NCBI RefSeq assembly: GCF_000027125.1
Contig: NC_017626.1
Direction: 5' to 3' (one strand)
DNA length: 64,000 nt
From: Escherichia coli 042
GTDB lineage: Bacteria; Pseudomonadota; Gammaproteobacteria; Enterobacterales; Enterobacteriaceae
Below, piece after piece: positions 155 through 59,351 of the stretch. Both the position numbers and the translations under genes were made by a program. The first letter of the stretch is position 1. The number at the start of each line of letters is the position of its first letter. The notes beneath the pieces were generated by a model, which was not told where the DNA came from, did no database searches, and worked only from the letters and a program-made list of their open reading frames with translations.

Positions 155-1075
155 ATGTTTCCAAAATGCAAATTTTCCCGCGAGTTTCTGCATCCTCGCT
201 ACTGGCTCACATGGTTTGGGCTTGGTGTACTCTGGCTTTGGGTACAGCTTCCTTATCCTGTTCTCTGCTTTCTCGGCACACGTATCGGCACAATGGCGCG
301 ACCATTCCTGAAACGTCGTGAATCTATCGCCCGTAAAAACCTGGAACTTTGTTTCCCGCAGCATTCTGCTGAAGAGCGCGAGAAGATGATCGCCGAAAAC
401 TTTCGTTCACTCGGCATGGCGCTGGTAGAAACCGGCATGGCATGGTTCTGGCCCGACAGTCGCGTCCGTAAATGGTTTGATGTGGAAGGGCTGGATAACC
501 TTAAACGCGCACAAATGCAAAATCGCGGCGTAATGGTTGTCGGCGTCCATTTTATGTCGCTGGAACTGGGCGGCCGCGTGATGGGACTTTGTCAGCCAAT
601 GATGGCCACCTATCGCCCGCATAATAATCAGCTGATGGAATGGGTGCAGACCCGTGGTCGCATGCGCTCTAACAAAGCGATGATCGGCAGAAATAATCTG
701 CGCGGCATTGTCGGAGCACTGAAGAAAGGTGAAGCGGTATGGTTTGCTCCCGATCAGGATTATGGTCGTAAAGGCAGCTCCTTCGCGCCGTTCTTTGCGG
801 TAGAAAATGTCGCCACAACCAATGGCACCTATGTCCTCTCCCGTCTCTCTGGCGCAGCCATGTTGACCGTAACGATGGTAAGAAAAGCGGATTACAGCGG
901 ATATCGTTTGTTCATCACCCCAGAAATGGAAGGCTACCCGGCAGATGAAAATCAAGCCGCTGCCTATATGAACAAGATTATCGAGAAAGAGATCATGCGC
1001 GCGCCGGAGCAGTACCTCTGGATCCACCGTCGCTTTAAAACGCGCCCGGTGGGTGAATCGTCGTTATACATTTAA
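155..1075 (+). CDS. lpxP: Kdo2-lipid IVA palmitoleoyltransferase (cold-induced lipid A acyltransferase)
   Basis: ORF 89..1075 translation recognised as LpxP; start placed at internal ATG 155 (MFPKCKF...) with GAAGG SD upstream, giving 306 aa. Confidence 0.85.
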   Translation: MFPKCKFSREFLHPRYWLTWFGLGVLWLWVQLPYPVLCFLGTRIGTMARPFLKRRESIARKNLELCFPQHSAEEREKMIAENFRSLGMALVETGMAWFWPDSRVRKWFDVEGLDNLKRAQMQNRGVMVVGVHFMSLELGGRVMGLCQPMMATYRPHNNQLMEWVQTRGRMRSNKAMIGRNNLRGIVGALKKGEAVWFAPDQDYGRKGSSFAPFFAVENVATTNGTYVLSRLSGAAMLTVTMVRKADYSGYRLFITPEMEGYPADENQAAAYMNKIIEKEIMRAPEQYLWIHRRFKTRPVGESSLYI

Positions 1076-1429
1076 CAAACTGCTCTTACTCTTTCCCTCC
1101 TCAAATCAGCCATAATAACCTCATGGTTTTTATGGCTTTTTTCTTAAGGTTTTTTCCTTCGCTGAATCTCTAATTATTACCGTCAGAAATTAAACTGTCG
1201 CCGATATGAGACACCTGTAAGTTACTAAAAGTAAATAAGAAAATGCCTCTTGTCTCGTTTCAGTTTTAGGCGTACATTAGCGCCGTCTCGAGCAGTTTAG
1301 CTCAGAATTCTGGGGTGATGCCCACGGTAAAATACGGACTTTCAATGTCGTTTTGCCCGGTGTCAACTCACTGTATCAGGTGTAATGAAGTCATTCAGGC
1401 GTAACAGTAATTACGCGGAGAGATGTAAA

Positions 1430-1501
1430 GTGAAATATTTCTTTATGGGCATTTCTTTTATGGTCATCGTTTGGGCCGGTACTTTTGCCCTGATGATCTA
1501 A
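1430..1501 (+). CDS. ypdK: small hydrophobic membrane protein, 23 aa
   Basis: GTG-initiated 24-codon ORF encoding VKYFFMGISFMVIVWAGTFALMI, a single TM helix; matches my recollection of K-12 YpdK; not in the ORF track because of its size. Confidence 0.55.
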   Translation: MKYFFMGISFMVIVWAGTFALMI

Positions 1502-1520
1502 AAGCAAACTGTGCAATGAA

Positions 1521-1546
1521 AAACAGGAGCCATCTGGCTCCTGTTT
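1521..1546. terminator. bidirectional stem-loop between convergent ypdK and alaC
   Basis: inverted repeat acaggagcc-atct-ggctcctgt flanked by A-run on one side and T-rich tract on the other. Confidence 0.5.
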
Positions 1547-1566
1547 GCATTTCTGACGACGATTTT

Positions 1567-2805
1567 TTATTCCGCGTTTTCGTGAATATGTTTGCTGCTG
1601 GCGGGTAGTAAACCGTCGGCACGGAACATCGCTTTAATCCCACGAATCGCCTGACGAATACGGTCTCGGTTTTCAATCAGTGCAAAGCGAACATGCGTGT
1701 CGCCGTAGTCGCCAAAGCCGATCCCCGGAGAGACACAGACCTTCGCTTCGTTAAGCAGTTTCTTGGCAAATTCCAGTGAGCCCATGGCCGCATATGGTTC
1801 CGGGATTTTCGCCCAGACATACATCGAAGCCTTCGGCATTTCGACCATCCAGCCCGCTTCATGCAGCCCTTTAACCAGTACATCGCGGCGGCGTTTGTAC
1901 TGTTCGGCAATGTCGCACACGCACTGTTGATCGCCCTCCAGCGCCGCAATTGCCGCTACCTGCAACGGCGTAAAGGTGCCGTAATCGTGATAGCTTTTAA
2001 TACGTGCCAACGCGCTGACCAGCGTTTTGTTACCGACCATAAAGCCGATACGCCAGCCCGCCATGTTGTAGCTTTTCGACAGCGTAAAGAACTCTACCGC
2101 CACATCGCGTGCGCCCGGCACCTGCATGATTGACGGCGCTTTCCAGCCATCGTAGACGATATCGGCATAGGCCAGGTCATGGACCACCAGCACATCGTAG
2201 CGTTTCGCCAGCGCCACAACCTTCTCAAAGAATTCCAGTTCCACGCATTGCGCGGTTGGGTTCGACGGGAAGCCGAGGAGCATCATCTTCGGTTTCGGAT
2301 AACTTTCACGAATGGCGCGTTCCAGTTCGTTGAAGAAATCGACACCTTCCACCAGCGGCACTGAGCGTACCTGCGCCCCGGCAATCACCGCGCCGTAAAT
2401 ATGAATCGGGTAGCTTGGATTAGGCACCAGTACAGTGTCACCATGATCCAGCGTCGCCAGCATCAGATGCGCCAGTCCCTCTTTCGAACCAATGGTGACG
2501 ATAGCCTCTGATTCCGGGTCGATCTCAACGTCGTAGCGATCCTGATACCAGCGGGAAATGGCGCGACGTAACCGCGGAATGCCGCGTGACGTGGAGTAAC
2601 CATGCGTGTCCGGGCGCTGGGCCACCGTACATAATTTTTCGACGATGTGCGGCGGAGTCGCACCGTCCGGGTTACCCATACTGAAATCGATAATATCTTC
2701 GCCGCGCCGACGCGCAGCCATTTTCAGTTCAGCGGTAATATTAAAAACGTAGGGCGGGAGACGATCAATGCGCGTAAAGCGACGTTCAGGGCGAGTGTCA
2801 GCCAT
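1567..2805 (-). CDS. alaC: glutamate-pyruvate aminotransferase (PLP-dependent class I aminotransferase)
   Basis: 412-aa ORF; translation recognised as AlaC/YfdZ. Confidence 0.9.
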
Positions 2806-3181
2806 AATTTCCTCAGATTAACGTTAGCGCCCGGACCGTCCGAGCGACGCTGCCACGATGGTGGCTGTTTTGAAAATAGCCTGATTAATTTCTGTCTGTC
2901 CAGCGTTTTAGAACATTTTTATCAATGGCTTTAAATGAGGAACTCTGCTTTAAAAACAGGAAATTTATCTATGCTAACAAGAAAATTACCACTCAAATTA
3001 TTAACATTATAATTTCAATAAATTTACCAATCAGAAGTGCATTATCAAGAGATGCATTGCTAATACACCATTTATCTTTCAATCCCCTTTTAAAATTGTG
3101 GTTTTTCCTCAAAAATGGCCTGCTGGTCATCAGCCTTCAGGTTACCTATCATAGAGGTTTAATCCTTATTCAGAGTCACCC

Positions 3182-4879
3182 GTGCACGAAATATTCAACA
3201 TGCTGCTAGCGGTCTTCGATCGGGCAGCGTTAATGCTTATCTGCCTGTTCTTTCTCATCCGTATCCGCCTGTTTCGCGAACTGTTGCACAAGTCGGCGCA
3301 CTCCCCAAAAGAGCTGCTCGCTGTTACCGCCATTTTCTCGCTGTTCGCCCTGTTCAGCACCTGGTCCGGCGTTCCCGTAGAAGGCTCGCTGGTGAACGTA
3401 CGTATTATCGCGGTGATGTCAGGCGGGATTCTGTTTGGCCCGTGGGTAGGCATTATTACCGGCGTGATCGCAGGTATTCACCGTTATTTAATTGATATCG
3501 GCGGCGTGACGGCGATCCCCTGCTTTATCACCAGCATTCTGGCGGGTTGTATATCGGGCTGGATCAACCTGAAAATCCCTAAAGCACAGCGCTGGCGCGT
3601 CGGTATTCTCGGCGGCATGTTATGTGAAACGTTGACCATGATTCTGGTGATTGTCTGGGCACCAACTACCGCATTGGGGATCGATATCGTCTCTAAAATC
3701 GGGATTCCAATGATCCTCGGTAGCGTCTGTATCGGCTTTATTGTGCTGCTGGTGCAAAGCGTTGAGGGCGAAAAAGAGGCCAGCGCCGCGCGGCAGGCCA
3801 AGCTGGCGCTGGATATCGCCAACAAAACGCTACCGCTGTTTCGCCATGTCAATAGCGAGTCATTACGCAAAGTTTGTGAAATTATTCGCGATGATATTCA
3901 CGCCGATGCGGTGGCGATTACTAATACCGATCATGTGCTGGCCTATGTCGGCGTGGGCGAACACAACTATCAGAATGGCGATGACTTCATTAGCCCGACT
4001 ACCCGACAGGCGATGAATTACGGAAAAATCATCATTAAAAACAACGATGAAGCCCACCGCACACCAGAGATTCATTCCATGCTGGTGATCCCATTGTGGG
4101 AGAAAGGCGTTGTGACCGGAACACTGAAAATTTACTACTGCCACGCGCATCAGATCACTTCCTCATTACAGGAAATGGCGGTCGGTCTGTCGCAAATCAT
4201 CTCCACGCAACTGGAGGTTTCGCGTGCCGAGCAGTTACGTGAAATGGCAAATAAGGCAGAGCTTCGCGCTCTGCAAAGCAAAATTAATCCCCATTTTCTG
4301 TTTAACGCTCTGAACGCTATTTCATCGTCAATCCGTCTGAATCCAGATACCGCTCGCCAGCTGATCTTTAATCTGTCGCGTTATCTGCGCTATAACATTG
4401 AATTAAAAGACGATGAGCAAATCGATATCAAAAAAGAGCTGTATCAAATTAAAGACTATATTGCCATTGAGCAGGCCCGCTTTGGCGACAAGCTGACGGT
4501 TATCTATGATATTGATGAAGAGGTGAATTGCTGCATTCCCAGCCTGCTGATCCAGCCGTTGGTGGAGAATGCCATTGTCCACGGTATCCAGCCTTGCAAA
4601 GGTAAAGGCGTTGTCACCATCAGCGTTGCAGAGTGCGGCAATCGGGTACGCATTGCGGTGCGAGATACCGGGCACGGCATCGATCCAAAGGTGATTGAGC
4701 GGGTCGAAGCGAATGAAATGCCGGGCAATAAAATTGGTCTGCTGAATGTCCATCATCGCGTGAAGTTATTGTATGGCGAGGGGCTGCATATCCGCCGCCT
4801 GGAACCAGGAACGGAAATTGCGTTTTACATTCCTAACCAACGCACCCCAGTCGCCTCACAGACTACGTTATTGCTTTGA
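3182..4879 (+). CDS. ypdA: LytS-type sensor histidine kinase (5TM-Lyt, GAF, HisKA/HATPase)
   Basis: 565-aa ORF with GTG start; multi-TM N-terminus and C-terminal kinase motifs; recognised as YpdA. Confidence 0.9.
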
Positions 4880-4893
4880 GCCGGAGTGATATT

Positions 4894-5628
4894 GTGAAAG
4901 TCATCATTGTTGAAGACGAATTCCTGGCACAACAGGAACTGAGCTGGCTAATTAAAGAGCACAGCCAGATGGAGATTGTCGGCACCTTTGACGACGGTCT
5001 GGACGTGTTGAAGTTTTTGCAGCATAACCGCGTCGACGCCATTTTTCTGGATATCAATATTCCGTCGCTGGATGGTGTGTTGCTGGCGCAAAACATCAGC
5101 CAGTTCGCCCATAAACCATTTATTGTGTTTATCACCGCGTGGAAAGAACATGCGGTAGAAGCGTTTGAACTGGAGGCGTTTGACTACATTCTCAAACCGT
5201 ATCAGGAGTCACGCATTACCGGGATGCTGCAAAAACTGGAAGCGGCCTGGCAACAACAGCAGACCAGCAGCACGCCTGCCGCGACGGTAACGCGTGAGAA
5301 TGACACCATTAATCTGGTGAAAGATGAGCGAATAATCGTCACGCCAATTAACGATATCTATTACGCCGAAGCGCACGAGAAAATGACCTTTGTCTATACG
5401 CGGCGTGAATCCTACGTAATGCCGATGAACATTACCGAATTTTGCAGCAAACTGCCGCCGTCGCATTTTTTCCGCTGCCATCGCTCATTTTGTGTCAATC
5501 TGAACAAAATCCGCGAGATCGAACCGTGGTTTAATAACACCTACATTCTGCGGCTGAAAGATCTGGATTTTGAAGTGCCAGTCAGCCGCAGCAAAGTTAA
5601 AGAATTCCGCCAGTTAATGCATCTTTAA
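4894..5628 (+). CDS. ypdB: LytTR-family response regulator
   Basis: ORF track starts at TTG 4876; preferred start GTG 4894 (MKVIIVEDE...) with GGAG SD 7 nt upstream; receiver domain plus LytTR; sits just downstream of ypdA stop. Confidence 0.85.
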   Translation: MKVIIVEDEFLAQQELSWLIKEHSQMEIVGTFDDGLDVLKFLQHNRVDAIFLDINIPSLDGVLLAQNISQFAHKPFIVFITAWKEHAVEAFELEAFDYILKPYQESRITGMLQKLEAAWQQQQTSSTPAATVTRENDTINLVKDERIIVTPINDIYYAEAHEKMTFVYTRRESYVMPMNITEFCSKLPPSHFFRCHRSFCVNLNKIREIEPWFNNTYILRLKDLDFEVPVSRSKVKEFRQLMHL

Positions 5629-6500: not shown

Positions 6501-8996
6501 TCAGAAGGTTAATTCCGTTTCCAGCAGCGTCAGGATGCTTTGCGCATCTTGCGCGGCGAACAGCGACTGGCGGAAGTTTTTATTCACCAGTTTACGCGCC
6601 AGCTGCGAGAAGACTTTCACATGATTCATCCCTTCGTTAGCGCCCAGTGTCAGCATGATCACCAGTTCGACTTCGCCCATTTCTGACTGCCAGTCAACCG
6701 GTTTCACCAGCCGGGCAATGCTGATACTGGAATGACGGATCCACTGAGATTTGGTATGCGGGATCGCTACGCCAAAACCAACGCCAGTAGTAACAATCTC
6801 TTCCCGCTGCCAGACATCTTCTTCCAGCTCAAACGGATGTTCAGTACGCCCGTTAACACCAAGGTTGCCGCACAGGAACTGGATCGCCTGCTCTTTATTA
6901 CTAAAGTCCTGATCAACAAAGATATTCTCCAGCGCCAGCAGTGGGCGAACGTCTTCTTCCGGCGTAAAGGCGGTGAGTAACGCTTCAATTTCCTGCGCAC
7001 TGCGGCATTCACATGCCTGACGCGCCAGTTCCCGACACGCCTCGCTATCCAGTTGACGAAGCTGGCTTTTCACCGCCGGAATGCGCGGGCTACTCATGCT
7101 TAACTCGTCCAGGCCCAGCCCAAGCAGTAGAGGCAGATAACGACTTTCACCGCCTAGTTCACCGCAAATACCTACCCATTTGCCGCGCTGATGCGCAGTG
7201 GTAACAATCTGCTGCAACATGCGCAGGAACGATGGCGTAATCGGGTTATACAGCGGCGATACGCGCGGGTTATTACGATCGACCGCATACAGATACTGGG
7301 TCATATCGTTAGAACCGATACTGAAGAAATCGACCTCATCGCAGAAGTGGTCGATGATGTAGCACACCGACGGCACTTCCACCATGATACCCAGCGTAAT
7401 CGTCTCTGCATGACGCAGACCATCGCGTTTAAGCTCAACGATCGCTTTTTGGATCTCACCCTTCACCCATAAGATCTGATCGAGGCTGTGAACCATCGGG
7501 ATCATCAGCTGGGCGTTGCCGAAACTGGCGGCACGCAAAATAGCCCGCAGTTGAGTGCGGAACAGGCCAGCAAATTCCGGGTAAATTCGTACCGCACGAT
7601 AGCCGAGGAACGGGTTCTCTTCCTGGGGAATGTTGAGGTAAGGAATGCTTTTATCGCCGCCGATGTCCATTGTGCGGAAGATAATCGGCTTGTCGCCCGC
7701 GGCCAGTAGCACCTGCTGGTAGGCTTCAAATTGCTCCTGCTCGTCCGGCGCGCTGTCGCGATCCATATAGAGCATTTCAGTACGGAACAGCCCAACACCT
7801 TCCGCGCCGTTGGCAAACGCGCCAGGCGCTTCCAGAGCAGTGCCAATATTCGCCGCAATATCAATGCGCTTGTTATCACGGGAATAGGCCAGCTGCGCGG
7901 CGGCCTGCGCCTGTTGTTGCTGACGTTTATCCGCCAGCGTCTGCGCAACCTGATAATAACCGCTCACCGCGTCATCAGGATTAATCGCCAGCACGCCGCA
8001 CTGGGCGTCAAGCACCGCCGGTTGCCCGGCATAACGGGCAATCGCATCCAGCGGCAGGCCGCTAAGAACCGGGATCGCCGAGGCGCGGGCCAGAATCAGT
8101 GTATGCGAGGTGCGCCCGGTTTTCTCCAGAATCATGCCCGCAAGATTTTTTAAATCGAGGCTTAAAAACTGGCTTGGGGTTAAATCTTCAGCCACCAGAA
8201 TGGTCGGTTTTTCAAGCACCAGATTGTTGCGCGGCTTCAGTTCCGGCCAGGTGATATGCAGCAACTGTTCGCTGATATCGCGAATGTCGCTAACACGCTC
8301 GCGCAGATAATCGCTGGCAGAAGCAGATAGTTTGGCGCAAACCTGCTCCATATTGCTGATGATCGCCGCCCCCAGCCCCTGATGCTGTTCTGCCATCAGG
8401 CGACGGATATTGCCCGCAAATTCATCATCCTGGATCAGCGACAAATGGGCGCTGAGGATAGTTTTGCTTTCTCCGTCACGCTCACGCAATTGCTGGTTCA
8501 GTTGCTCGGCAAGCGTTGCCAGGCTGTGCTCCAGCAGGGTGGAATCTTGCGCACTGGCGGGGATTGCCCGATAACTATCGAGGCTGTCGCTCTGTAACAG
8601 GGTCAGCGTACCCACGCCGACGCCGCTTGCCAGCACATTGCCGTACAGTAAATCAGGATTCAGACGGCTTAATGAACGCGGCAGCGGATGCGCCGTCAGT
8701 TTTGCCTGTGTTGGCTGGATGCTGTCGCTGTCGATAAAGCGCACCTGGATGTACTCTTCCAGCACGCGCCGCGCCTGCTCTTCATCGCTGCCGCTAATGT
8801 TCAGGCTGCAACTGTCATTAAATAAAGTGCCAGTGCCAATCAGCGCCAGCGAGCTTTTGGCATCTGCCTTTGCGTTCTGGCGATGGTTAATAAAAGTGAT
8901 TTCGCTTTGCCACTGGTTGCACTGTTCTTTAAGTTCCCACGCCGGACGAGCATGCAGACCGTTTGGCAAAGGACAGAGAAATTGAATCGTTAACAT
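6501..8996 (-). CDS. fryA: PTS multiphosphoryl transfer protein (HPr-like, Enzyme I-like and EIIA domains)
   Basis: 831-aa ORF; N-terminal HPr-like segment, central EI PEP-utilising domain, C-terminal EIIA-like region. Confidence 0.9.
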   Translation of the reverse strand: MLTIQFLCPLPNGLHARPAWELKEQCNQWQSEITFINHRQNAKADAKSSLALIGTGTLFNDSCSLNISGSDEEQARRVLEEYIQVRFIDSDSIQPTQAKLTAHPLPRSLSRLNPDLLYGNVLASGVGVGTLTLLQSDSLDSYRAIPASAQDSTLLEHSLATLAEQLNQQLRERDGESKTILSAHLSLIQDDEFAGNIRRLMAEQHQGLGAAIISNMEQVCAKLSASASDYLRERVSDIRDISEQLLHITWPELKPRNNLVLEKPTILVAEDLTPSQFLSLDLKNLAGMILEKTGRTSHTLILARASAIPVLSGLPLDAIARYAGQPAVLDAQCGVLAINPDDAVSGYYQVAQTLADKRQQQQAQAAAQLAYSRDNKRIDIAANIGTALEAPGAFANGAEGVGLFRTEMLYMDRDSAPDEQEQFEAYQQVLLAAGDKPIIFRTMDIGGDKSIPYLNIPQEENPFLGYRAVRIYPEFAGLFRTQLRAILRAASFGNAQLMIPMVHSLDQILWVKGEIQKAIVELKRDGLRHAETITLGIMVEVPSVCYIIDHFCDEVDFFSIGSNDMTQYLYAVDRNNPRVSPLYNPITPSFLRMLQQIVTTAHQRGKWVGICGELGGESRYLPLLLGLGLDELSMSSPRIPAVKSQLRQLDSEACRELARQACECRSAQEIEALLTAFTPEEDVRPLLALENIFVDQDFSNKEQAIQFLCGNLGVNGRTEHPFELEEDVWQREEIVTTGVGFGVAIPHTKSQWIRHSSISIARLVKPVDWQSEMGEVELVIMLTLGANEGMNHVKVFSQLARKLVNKNFRQSLFAAQDAQSILTLLETELTF

Positions 8997-9020
8997 AACC
9001 GCTCCGGGTTAATCAGGAGA

Positions 9021-10058
9021 TCATCTGAAATCCGTCAGTTGAACAACCGTCTCACGCGTAAGACGTTGAATAAGGGCAGATAAAAGCTGCTGCATCTGCA
9101 AAATGTCACGGCAATCGGCAATCGATGCGGCGCAATGTCCGTGGCGGGTCGCAGGCCCCATCACCACTGTGGGTACGCCAGTGCCGGTTAAGTGCACCGC
9201 CCCACCGTCCGTGCCACCGTTGCTGAACATATCTGCCTGTAACGGCACGCTAATTTCTGCCGCCACGGTTTCAATCCACGCGGTAAGTTTTGGCGGCGCA
9301 ATCAGCGATTTATCGCTTAACACCAGCATCGGGCCGTTACCAATCTGACGATGGTTAGCCGCGCCATAATCAAAGTTTTTCGCCCAGCAGGCGGTATCCA
9401 GCACAATCGCAACGTCCGGTGAAACCGCACGGGTAGCGGTTTGCCCGCCGCGTAAGCCGACCTCTTCGCTGGAGCTGGCCACCAACCACACTTCCGCAGG
9501 CAGTTCGGCATCGTGCAGCTCACGTAGTAAGGTAACTAACAGGTAGCAACCGAGGCGATCATCAAAGGCTTTCCCCATCACTCGCTGGTGAGGGAGAACC
9601 TGAAAAGTGGTATCAAAGGTGACGCGATCGCCTGGACGAATTCCCGCCTGCATCACTTCGTCATACGAGCGAGCGCCAATGTCCACGCGCATGGCGCTGA
9701 CGTCATTCCCCTGCCGGTCGCCGTCAAGCAGGCCAGGTATTTTGCACTCTTCACGGGTGGTGATCCGCACCGGCTGAAGCTGTCGGGCAGCCATGCGCAC
9801 GTTGCCAACTGGCAGCACATCAATCGCCCCTTCGCGGGAGATGCTGCGCACCATAAATCCCACTTCGTCCATATGCGCACAGATCATCACCTTCGGACCT
9901 GTCGATTCATTGAGGCGGATCAGCACCGATCCCAGCCCATCAAATCGCACTTCTTTTTGCAGGCGATCCGCTTCTTCCAGCAGGATCTGCCGTACTTCCT
10001 GTTCCGAGGAGGCGATCGCATCTGCCTCGCTCAACGCTTTTAGTAACGATAAATCCAT
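9021..10058 (-). CDS. ypdE: M42-family aminopeptidase
   Basis: 345-aa ORF recognised as YpdE. Confidence 0.85.
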
Positions 10059-21202: not shown

Positions 21203-21278
<76 letters not shown>

Positions 21279-21317
21279 ACGATGCGTTTACGTACCAAAT
21301 TTGCTGGGTGCAAAATT

Positions 21318-21393
<76 letters not shown>

Positions 21394-37557: not shown

Positions 37558-37655
37558 GCCGGATGCGGCGCAAACGCCTTATCCGGCCTACAAAATCATG
37601 CTAATTCAATATATTGCAGAAATATCGTAGGCCTGATAAGCGTAGCGCATCAGGC
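37558..37655. repeat. REP pair (BIME) between yfeS and cysM
   Basis: gccggatgcggcgcaaacgccttatccggcctac and gtaggcctgataagcgtagcgcatcaggc. Confidence 0.7.

Positions 37656-58868: not shown

Positions 58869-59351
<483 letters not shown>

Follow-up and report, generated by a model that had tools for sequence, protein, structure and literature searches.

The divergent alaC and ypdA genes of Escherichia coli 042 are separated by a long control region, and sequence alignments indicate that its most constrained part is the GC-rich alaC leader rather than the AT-rich DNA. We analyzed a 64,000-nucleotide stretch of this genome (from NC_017626.1; hereafter the window, with positions counted from its first base). 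The alaC open reading frame (ORF) occupies 1567..2805 on the minus strand, and the ypdA ORF (now named pyrS in the MG1655 annotation) starts with GTG at 3182 on the plus strand. An earlier note had described the DNA between them as a long AT-rich region that probably contains both promoters and regulatory sites; it missed the leader. Considered for its promoters alone, the gap is ordinary and most of it was known before. We regard the alaC leader, in contrast, as a strong candidate for a cis-regulatory RNA that is widely conserved and undescribed. The intergenic region and the features of the leader are:

2806..3181, no strand: alaC-ypdA intergenic region, 376 bp between the ORF limits, 36.7% GC
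2806..2866, minus strand: alaC 5' leader, 61 nt, from the transcription start site (TSS), the A at 2866, to the base before the ATG (2805-2803)
2852..2865, minus strand: P1, a 5-bp hairpin (GCCAC / CAUC / GUGGC), +2..+15 of the leader
2821..2850, minus strand: P2, a 13-bp hairpin (RCGUC-GCUCGGA-CGG-UCCGGGC-G-CUN-ACGU), +17..+46, from the RNAalifold consensus and the minimum free energy (MFE) fold
2817, minus strand: RNA 3' end detected in vivo by Term-seq, 12 nt upstream of the alaC ATG
2811..2814, minus strand: alaC Shine-Dalgarno sequence GAGG, unpaired in the E. coli MFE fold

The alaC leader is predicted to fold into two adjacent hairpins. We took the 155 nt that precede alaC in each of 81 Enterobacterales (among them Pantoea, Erwinia, Serratia, Pectobacterium, Lonsdalea, and Mixta) and aligned them. 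RNAalifold and single-sequence folding agreed on the order of the elements: P1, P2 directly after it, about eight unpaired nucleotides, the GAGG, and the ATG. The loop of P2 is the triplet CGG, and its stem includes a 3-nt bulge (C, U, N) and a U.G wobble pair (U 2843 and G 2831) that does not change. The calculated folding energies were -15.2 kcal/mol for P2 alone and -23.9 kcal/mol for the 50-nt leader RNA described below.

The sequence of P2 was nearly invariant in the Enterobacterales. A 29-nt core, CGTCGCTCGGACGGTCCGGGCGCTNACGT, was identical in 75 of the 81 sequences, and the other six differed at one or two positions each (two had CGAACGGTTCG and four had GGATGG). At fourfold-degenerate sites in the alaC coding sequence, identity between the window and genera other than Escherichia was only 41-59%. 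Twelve of the 13 pairs in P2 were unchanged or nearly so, and only the basal pair covaried; the changes seen were G.U and A-U at the base and, in two Kluyvera-group sequences, the replacement of one G-C pair by A-U. The AlaC protein is itself unusually conserved, with 89-99% identity across the Enterobacterales compared to 70-99% for YpdA from the same loci, and synonymous sites are near saturation.

P1 varied in sequence and its pairing was maintained. All five pairs changed on both sides (78 cells of the alignment), and 98.2% of cells were paired. The covariation score was 0.217, compared to 0.074 for shuffled alignments (none of 500 reached the observed value) and at most 0.052 for slid controls. 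Variants such as GCCAC/GUGGC, GCUGC/GCAGC, GGUCAC/GUGACC, and GACCAG/CUGGUC are legible in the plain alignment. The loop of P1 is polymorphic within E. coli (window position 2856): it is CAUC in the window and in the MG1655 sequence used for Term-seq, and CAUU in DH5alpha (L001) and in one metagenome contig (L120).

P2 was found once per locus. A covariance model built from the Enterobacterales leader alignment gave a single match at each locus (66-96 bits) and no further match in the window, and the P2 element occurred at a median of one place per E. coli genome. With one place per genome and one model match per locus, we rejected the idea that P2 is a repeated extragenic element of the REP or BIME type.

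P2 is also present upstream of alaC homologs outside the Enterobacterales. The first such case was a metagenome contig with an AlaC homolog (76% identity) followed by hom, in which the upstream DNA reads GACGTCGCTCGGACGGTTCCGGGCGCTTACG and scored 32 bits. We then scanned metagenome DNA with the pattern GTCGCTCGGA-N(3-5)-TCCGGGCGCT and found matches in at least 120 contigs, and we analyzed 80 of these loci. P2 was directly upstream of an AlaC homolog in all 77 loci that had enough DNA downstream, with amino acid identities of 71-96% except at one locus (L141, 55%, a partial match only); the other three loci end too soon after P2. The GC content of these contigs ranged from 48% to 71%. Exact-sequence look-ups named hosts for six of eight AlaC protein clusters, with members in Pseudomonas, Paucimonas, Pandoraea, Collimonas, Janthinobacterium, Undibacterium, Noviherbaspirillum, Duganella, Rugamonas, and Casimicrobiaceae. 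AlaC homologs of 55-71% identity lacked P2. In the contigs of Pseudomonas and Burkholderiales type, AlaC identity was 71-90%. A word search of the full database with AlaC returned relatives of at least 89% identity only and is uninformative about the range of P2.

The flanks of the P2 core did not vary, although they were outside the search pattern. All 165 distinct sequences had the same C directly ahead of the core and the same ACG past the bulge, and the wobble pair was never C-G or U-A in the 165 distinct leaders. The basal pair was of five types (GU in 91, AU in 53, UA in 4, GC in 3, and UG in 2), with 93% pairing. The loop varied in sequence and length (CGG in 82, CGGT in 73, TGG in 6, CGGA in 2, and CGGC in 2), and the stem was kept.

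The position of P2 was maintained relative to the start codon. In 172 leaders, the distance from the base of P2 to the start codon was 0-19 nt, with a median of 16 nt, and was 12-17 nt in approximately 90% of them; this places the hairpin inside the ribosome footprint of the gene it would regulate. The distance from P2 to the -10 hexamer was not kept (about +8 to +17). In a Casimicrobiaceae-like group of Burkholderiales type, P2 caps a longer helix in which the 5' end of the leader pairs with the purine-rich Shine-Dalgarno region, and this outer helix has compensatory variants (CUUCU/AGGAAG, UUUCU/AGAAA, CUUG/CAAG, and CUGCG/CGCAG).

The gene downstream of alaC was the same in the two non-enteric loci in which neighbors were read (L085 and L086). 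In both, the alaC homolog is directly followed by homoserine dehydrogenase (hom), and in one protein cluster the alaC homolog and hom were called as a single fused product. The leader at L085 may control an alaC-hom operon.

An RNA 3' end has been detected in vivo just past P2. Published Term-seq data include a 3' end at position 2498307 (minus strand) of NC_000913.3, listed as 'orphan / upstream ORF -12 alaC' and found in two of three growth conditions (Adams et al. 2021, PMC7815308). It is in the tables and absent from the text of that paper (PMC7815308). This end corresponds to window position 2817, 4 nt past the base of P2, and together with the TSS at 2866 it defines a 50-nt leader RNA that consists of P1, P2, and the tail UAAU.

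Two other ways in which the sequence of P2 could be read did not hold up. An upstream ORF that overlaps P2 (GTG GCA GCG TCG CTC GGA CGG TCC GGG CGC TAA) was rejected: its start and stop codons are not conserved (TCA or TTA can stand in place of TAA), and fixation is equal at the three codon positions. We also considered pairing of P2 with the beginning of the coding sequence, where E. coli repeats ACGTCGCT at codons 7-10; other species have synonymous variation there.

The leader is made from a conserved alaC promoter that lies downstream from two boxes resembling one at sgrS. The features of this promoter region are:

2873..2878, minus strand: alaC -10 hexamer TATTTT, from a consensus scan and its spacing to the mapped TSS, conserved across genera
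2897..2902, minus strand: alaC -35 hexamer TGGACA, from a consensus scan, with an 18-bp spacer; TCGACA in most other genera
2932..2945, minus strand: SgrR-type box 1, GAGTTCCTCATTTA, -79..-66 of alaC; position weight matrix (PWM) score of 16.04, second-best in the window
2952..2965, minus strand: SgrR-type box 2, AATTTCCTGTTTTT, -99..-86 of alaC; PWM score of 17.96, best in the window

The alaC gene is transcribed from a sigma-70 promoter that starts at 2866. The published TSS of alaC (yfdZ) is at position 2496378 (minus strand) of NC_000913.2, with 1217 reads, a 61-nt 5' untranslated region (UTR), and the upstream sequence ...GGCTATTTTCAAAACA (Kim et al. 2012, PMC3415461, supplementary file 2). 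It maps to the A at window position 2866, 7 nt downstream of the -10 hexamer. The hexamers, a spacing within 16-18 bp, and the distance to the mapped start are those of a sigma-70 promoter. The -35 region (CTCGACAG/CTGGACAG) was near-invariant in the Enterobacterales and was also present in Pseudomonas-like contigs.

Two tandem boxes upstream of the alaC -35 are likely SgrR sites. The activator SgrR has been reported to activate sgrS, setA, and alaC, with the role of alaC in the stress response described as unknown (review citing Vanderpool and Gottesman 2007), in agreement with the SgrR control of alaC mentioned in the earlier note. A conserved box, (G)TTCC(Y)(C)TTTT, is upstream of the alaC -35. 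We made a PWM from 41 distinct orthologous boxes and scanned both strands of the window (approximately 128,000 positions). The two best positions were both inside the gap, in the orientation of alaC and 20 bp apart, and the next-best score elsewhere in the window was 13.74. The sgrS box in the K-12 sgrR-sgrS gap (GAGTTCCCCTTTTA, -68..-55 of sgrS) scored 18.09, above every position in the window. The tandem copy was also found in Citrobacter and Shimwellia sequences. Because the boxes share the sgrS motif and SgrR is the published activator of both genes, they are likely to be the sites at which SgrR acts on alaC.

The ypdA side of the gap contains a predicted promoter and several conserved blocks:

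3001..3027, no strand: central conserved island TTAACA..(T)GATATCA..TTAC, midway between the start sites, from columns of the 48-species alignment
3079..3092, plus strand: conserved block TCAATCCCCTTTTA, approximately -80..-67 of the predicted ypdA start, kept in at least 80% of species
3099..3112, plus strand: conserved block GGTTTTTCCTCAAA, upstream of the ypdA -35, from alignment columns
3124..3152, plus strand: predicted ypdA promoter, with -35 TGGTCA (3124-3129), a 17-bp spacer, and -10 TATCAT (3147-3152), from a consensus scan

Transcription of ypdABC probably starts from the conserved promoter at 3124-3152, with a TSS expected near 3159, which corresponds to position 2498648 of NC_000913.3, and a leader of approximately 22 nt to the GTG at 3182. 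The motif CTGGTCAT and TATCAT are the best conserved columns on this side of the alignment. In the published TSS table (Kim et al. 2012, PMC3415461), no start for ypdA lay within the gap, and its one entry for ypdA was a start inside alaC with six reads. The proposal that the gap holds both promoters stood for alaC, by a published start and hexamers, and for ypdA it remains a conserved prediction; mapped starts, a check that the earlier note had proposed, were found for alaC and not for ypdA. Term-seq 3' ends have been reported at +39 and +51 of ypdA in three growth conditions (PMC7815308). These are positions 2498710 and 2498722 of NC_000913.3 and 3221 and 3233 (plus strand) of the window. 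They show that transcripts do enter ypdA, and the ends could be due to premature termination or to processing early in ypdA.

The 6-read start on the plus strand is at approximately 2767, inside alaC and 414 nt upstream of ypdA. Terminator-like sites called on the plus strand at 2849-2881 are P1 and the alaC -10 region in reverse complement. The only plus-strand start nearby has six reads, and we set these sites aside. Together, this start and these hairpins would give an RNA of approximately 100 nt antisense to the alaC start and leader, on very weak evidence.

We looked for sites of other regulators in the gap. The block at 3079-3092 was a weak match to the SgrR-type matrix (8.94) and forms an inverted repeat with box 1. 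The island at 3001-3027 loosely resembles the IHF consensus. Autoregulation of the promoter by YpdB (PyrR) is not supported: the GGCATTTCAT-type direct repeat known from yhjX had no match in 2806-3181 at up to two mismatches. Of ten near-matches in the window to TCGATAAATT, an H-NS motif, two were in the gap, each at 9 of 10 positions. With these matches and 32% GC over most of its length, the gap is DNA of a type favored by H-NS, and it may be a target of nucleoid proteins as the earlier note had suggested. A table derived from EcoCyc places Lrp and Nac beside 'ilvE alaC' without separating the two genes. For FabR, a published Salmonella chromatin immunoprecipitation peak is at the convergent 3' side of lpxP(ddg)/alaC (ddg/yfdZ) and not in the gap. 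CsrA was likewise set aside, as alaC is unnamed in the supplementary files of CsrA transcriptomics and b2379 appears only in an enrichment list.

The gap is among the longest and most AT-rich in the window. The coordinates, length, and divergent arrangement given in the earlier note were exact. The region 2400-3600 matched 5,415 of 5,426 complete E. coli genomes at 95-99% identity, with alaC and ypdA annotated there. The window as a whole is 52.7% GC. A GC content as low as that of the gap occurs in only 0.14% of its 376-bp segments, and the minimum (35.4%) starts at 2870, within the gap. The several A/T tracts that had been noted amount to ten runs of A or T of at least four bases. The description as AT-rich holds for the region overall and not throughout: the 64 bp adjoining alaC (2806-2869) are 58% GC and the rest (2870-3181) is 32% GC. 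The gap was indeed longer than most, ranking second of approximately 65 in the annotation of the closest genome, after ptsH-cysK (383 bp). As annotated, the gap is one base pair shorter in MG1655 (375 bp) than in DH5alpha and the window (376 bp each).

The length of the gap is conserved in a subset of the Enterobacteriaceae. A protein-guided scan with one genome per species gave 80 loci with AlaC identities of 89-99%. Divergent ypdA was upstream of alaC, with a gap of 375-392 bp, in approximately 45 species from Escherichia, Citrobacter, Klebsiella, Raoultella, Enterobacter, Leclercia, Lelliottia, Kluyvera, Phytobacter, Yokenella, Trabulsiella, and other genera of the Enterobacteriaceae, indicating that the length is not a chance feature of this strain. 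When 48 gaps were aligned, they were on average 58% identical to that of the window, and conservation was in discrete blocks; much of the AT-rich center was weakly conserved. In Salmonella enterica subsp. diarizonae (L024) and at other loci (L044, L046, L053, L058, L059, L061, and more), the alaC leader and promoter were kept without ypdA within 3 kb upstream, and in Buttiauxella, Pantoea, and Serratia, ypdA is 0.85-2.2 kb from alaC. The tight pairing at 375-392 bp is therefore specific to a subset of the Enterobacteriaceae. The small ORFs in the gap (94 amino acids on the plus strand and 45 on the minus strand) are doubtful as genes; they run across non-conserved AT-rich DNA and the ypdA start.

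Several observations concern the surroundings of the gap. In the closest E. coli genome, NZ_CP033635.1, ypdB is a frameshifted pseudogene (8393-9126 of the locus extracted from that genome, L208). A second long AT-rich gap, at 1076-1566 on the lpxP-ypdK-alaC 3' side (355 bp from lpxP to ypdK in the annotation of the closest genome), contains the 23-amino acid ypdK gene and the candidate small RNA tpke70, named in the Term-seq table. An Rfam match there at 1452-1546 (Plastid-psbJ-2) was weak (E = 0.16) and is probably due to chance. Matches in the window at the Rfam gathering score were three tandem copies of naRNA4 (CssrE) at 58919-59299 (minus strand) and one ES036 (CssrF) at 37592-37634 (plus strand).

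The alaC leader does not correspond to a described RNA in the sources that we searched. Rfam 15 had no match to the leader in the window at the gathering score and no match at E of 1 or less in window positions 1000-5000 or in 13 diverse loci with P2. None of 5,423 E. coli RefSeq records had an annotation under P2. A full-text literature search for the leader and P2 sequence (both strands, in DNA and RNA letters) found nothing relevant; it did not cover subscription papers, and an earlier description is possible. The one published trace of P2 is the unnamed Term-seq 3' end in a supplementary table.

We considered several other explanations for P2, and each fails on at least one of the features tested. 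P2 could act as double-stranded DNA, as a near-palindromic operator (GCTCGGAC-G-GTCCGGGC, at +18..+47) to which a conserved dimeric transcription factor would bind and block elongation or initiation. A 17-bp near-perfect palindrome fits such a site, a near-invariant helix is expected of sequence-specific recognition, and AlaS is an example of a candidate that is annotated as a DNA-binding repressor. Five observations favor the conclusion that P2 acts as RNA rather than as DNA. Its departures from symmetry (the constant U.G and the basal pair, mostly G.U) are exactly those that wobble pairing allows; its center is 3 or 4 nt, which would shift the spacing of half-sites; its distance is kept to the start codon and not to the -10 hexamer; the outer helix of the Casimicrobiaceae-like group has compensatory variants; and the Term-seq 3' end is just past it. 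In addition, transcription factor sites are rarely so unchanged from Enterobacterales to Burkholderiales, and there is no similar sequence in the alaS promoter region, so that an AlaS operator in particular is not supported. We regard a DNA operator as improbable. The 50-nt RNA could instead act in trans, as a stable small RNA derived from the 5' UTR or as a sponge, with P2 as a surface for pairing or for titrating a protein. The TSS and the Term-seq 3' end do imply a discrete 50-nt species, and other 5' UTR fragments act as sponges (PMC7815308). However, all of the more than 170 leaders have P2 directly before alaC, with its distance to the start codon fixed, pointing to a role in cis; P2 is fully base-paired and has little that is free to pair; and the CsrA transcriptomics files do not name alaC. 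A role in trans is, in our estimate, more doubtful than a DNA operator.

Explanations that place P2 in cis were weighed in the same way. In attenuation, transcription would stop past the hairpin, the 50-nt RNA would be the terminated product, and read-through would be regulated. P2 is a stable GC-rich hairpin of 13 bp with a 3' end 4 nt past its base in two growth conditions, and many 3' ends in E. coli 5' UTRs have been ascribed to premature termination (PMC7815308). However, the hairpin is not followed by a U tract (in E. coli the tail reads UAAUCUGAGG, and elsewhere ACGUGAAAG, ACGUACUUCGAGG, GUGAAAG, or a similar sequence), a terminator scan made no call on the alaC strand at P2, the tail is not conserved while the stem is, and there is no conserved antiterminator pairing, with the 5' end of the coding sequence varying freely at synonymous sites. 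Attenuation is unlikely, although we rank it ahead of the other alternatives. P2 could also be the aptamer of a riboswitch that gates the ribosome-binding site in response to a small molecule such as alanine, pyruvate, glutamate, 2-oxoglutarate, or pyridoxal 5'-phosphate. It lies near the Shine-Dalgarno sequence in the leader, itself conserved, of a metabolic gene, has unpaired bases that do not change (C and U of the bulge and the loop CGG), and in one clade is part of an outer helix that sequesters the Shine-Dalgarno sequence. But known aptamers conserve the bases of the junction and loop and have stems that covary, and P2 is the reverse, with 12 of 13 pairs hardly changing; the 3-nt bulge and the loop of 3-4 nt leave little room for a pocket, and there was no Rfam match even at E of 1 or less in 14 loci. 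We consider a riboswitch about as improbable as a DNA operator. Lastly, the hairpins might do nothing more than protect the 5' end of the mRNA, with the gap being a plain promoter pair in an AT-rich spacer. Stem-loops at 5' ends commonly stabilize mRNAs, the folding energy of the leader is no outlier, and the AT-rich center is largely ill-conserved. A passive hairpin would be expected to covary like P1, not to stay nearly letter-identical beside a coding sequence with 41-59% identity at fourfold-degenerate sites, and P2 extends into hosts of 48-71% GC with a wobble that is never C-G or U-A. This explanation seems to us the most improbable of those considered.

We favor, with confidence somewhat better than even, a reading of the gap as a divergent control region with three parts: the alaC promoter with its SgrR-type boxes, the ypdA promoter, and a structured alaC leader in which P2 is an RNA operator. 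The 61-nt leader would be a structured cis-regulatory RNA made of a variable, covarying P1 and a near-invariant P2, and much of the AT-rich center would be a spacer of conserved length with one conserved island. We propose a sequence-specific operator based on the near-invariant helix, the fixed wobble, the position in the ribosome footprint, the association with one gene, and the range of hosts with no other common neighbor. P2 would be recognized by a conserved trans-acting factor, most probably a protein. Bound beside the ribosome-binding site, this factor would set the initiation of translation and, through initiation, whether the mRNA is cleaved in the interval from P2 to the Shine-Dalgarno sequence. 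The 50-nt leader RNA seen by Term-seq would be the stable product of this cleavage. The outer helix that sequesters the Shine-Dalgarno sequence in the Casimicrobiaceae-like group may be a hard-wired form of the same logic.

There are two leads to the identity of the factor, which we do not regard as evidence: the likeness of P2 to tRNA-Ala points towards recognition by alanyl-tRNA synthetase (AlaRS), and the constant partnership with alaC points towards autoregulation by AlaC. The wobble of P2 and its neighbors (G-C, G.U, G-C, C-G) are the same as G2-C71, G3.U70, G4-C69, and C5-G68 of the tRNA-Ala encoded in the window (two tRNA-Ala(GGC) genes at 21203-21393, minus strand, 18 kb from alaC). 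In a specific form of the proposal, to which we give little credence, P2 would imitate the acceptor stem of tRNA-Ala, be read by AlaRS, and couple translation of alaC to the state of alanine charging. Autoregulation by AlaC through P2 is an equally open variant; alaC is the sole gene that always accompanies P2, and its product is unusually conserved.

Several points weigh against the reading of P2 as an RNA operator and of the gap as described above. What points to an operator function is conservation and position. The near-invariant stem of P2 yields little covariation, and the covariation of P1 was counted on a model-fitted alignment, which leans towards structure. The identity of the core in the metagenome loci is by construction, as these loci were found with the exact core pattern. 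The folding energy of the leader is ordinary for an RNA of this composition (z = -1.07). The predicted E. coli fold leaves the Shine-Dalgarno sequence unpaired, so control there would need a factor in trans. The assignment of the boxes to SgrR comes from motif sharing and a statement in the literature, and the ypdA start is a prediction, with just the 6-read start inside alaC in the published table.

E. coli K-12 has been the subject of two decades of searches for cis-regulatory RNAs. The 30-nt P2 hairpin is under stronger constraint than most riboswitch cores and is also present in Pseudomonas and Burkholderiales. Little is understood of how alanine synthesis is controlled, and a post-transcriptional switch dedicated to alaC, if it exists, would provide a direct handle on that control and on the role of alaC in the SgrR response. 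If the partner is AlaRS, AlaC, or a metabolite, it would be a new regulatory class; with AlaRS, P2 would be an operator of the ThrRS type on a biosynthetic gene, conserved across beta- and gamma-proteobacteria. In Burkholderiales-type loci in which alaC is followed by hom, P2 may also gate the synthesis of homoserine and threonine.

We compared the alaC control region to known systems. At the promoter, the (G)TTCC(Y)(C)TTTT box is upstream of the -35 at both alaC and sgrS, as in the SgrR-activated promoters (sgrS/setA); alaC differs in having two tandem boxes in the orientation of the gene at -66..-99, and sgrS has one in the opposite orientation at -55..-68. In the leader, P2 resembles intrinsic terminators and 5' UTR attenuators in being GC-rich with an RNA 3' end a few nucleotides downstream, but it has no U tract or conserved alternative pairing. 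Like the small hairpin riboswitches (preQ1-I, guanidine-II/mini-ykkC, and NMT1/xanthine), it is approximately 30 nt, directly upstream of the Shine-Dalgarno sequence, and has conserved loop and bulge bases, and its apical ACGG resembles the ACGR loops of guanidine-II; in contrast to them, it is a single conserved hairpin with a stem that hardly varies and no Rfam match. Translational operators that are read by proteins (E. coli thrS with ThrRS, the leaders of ribosomal protein genes, and the MS2 coat-protein hairpin) share with P2 a short, sequence-constrained hairpin inside the 30S footprint, a leader dedicated to a single gene, and a helix pair kept as an identity element, which in P2 would be the U.G wobble. 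Here alaC differs in encoding a metabolic enzyme rather than a component of translation, and the comparison is one of working mode and not of membership.

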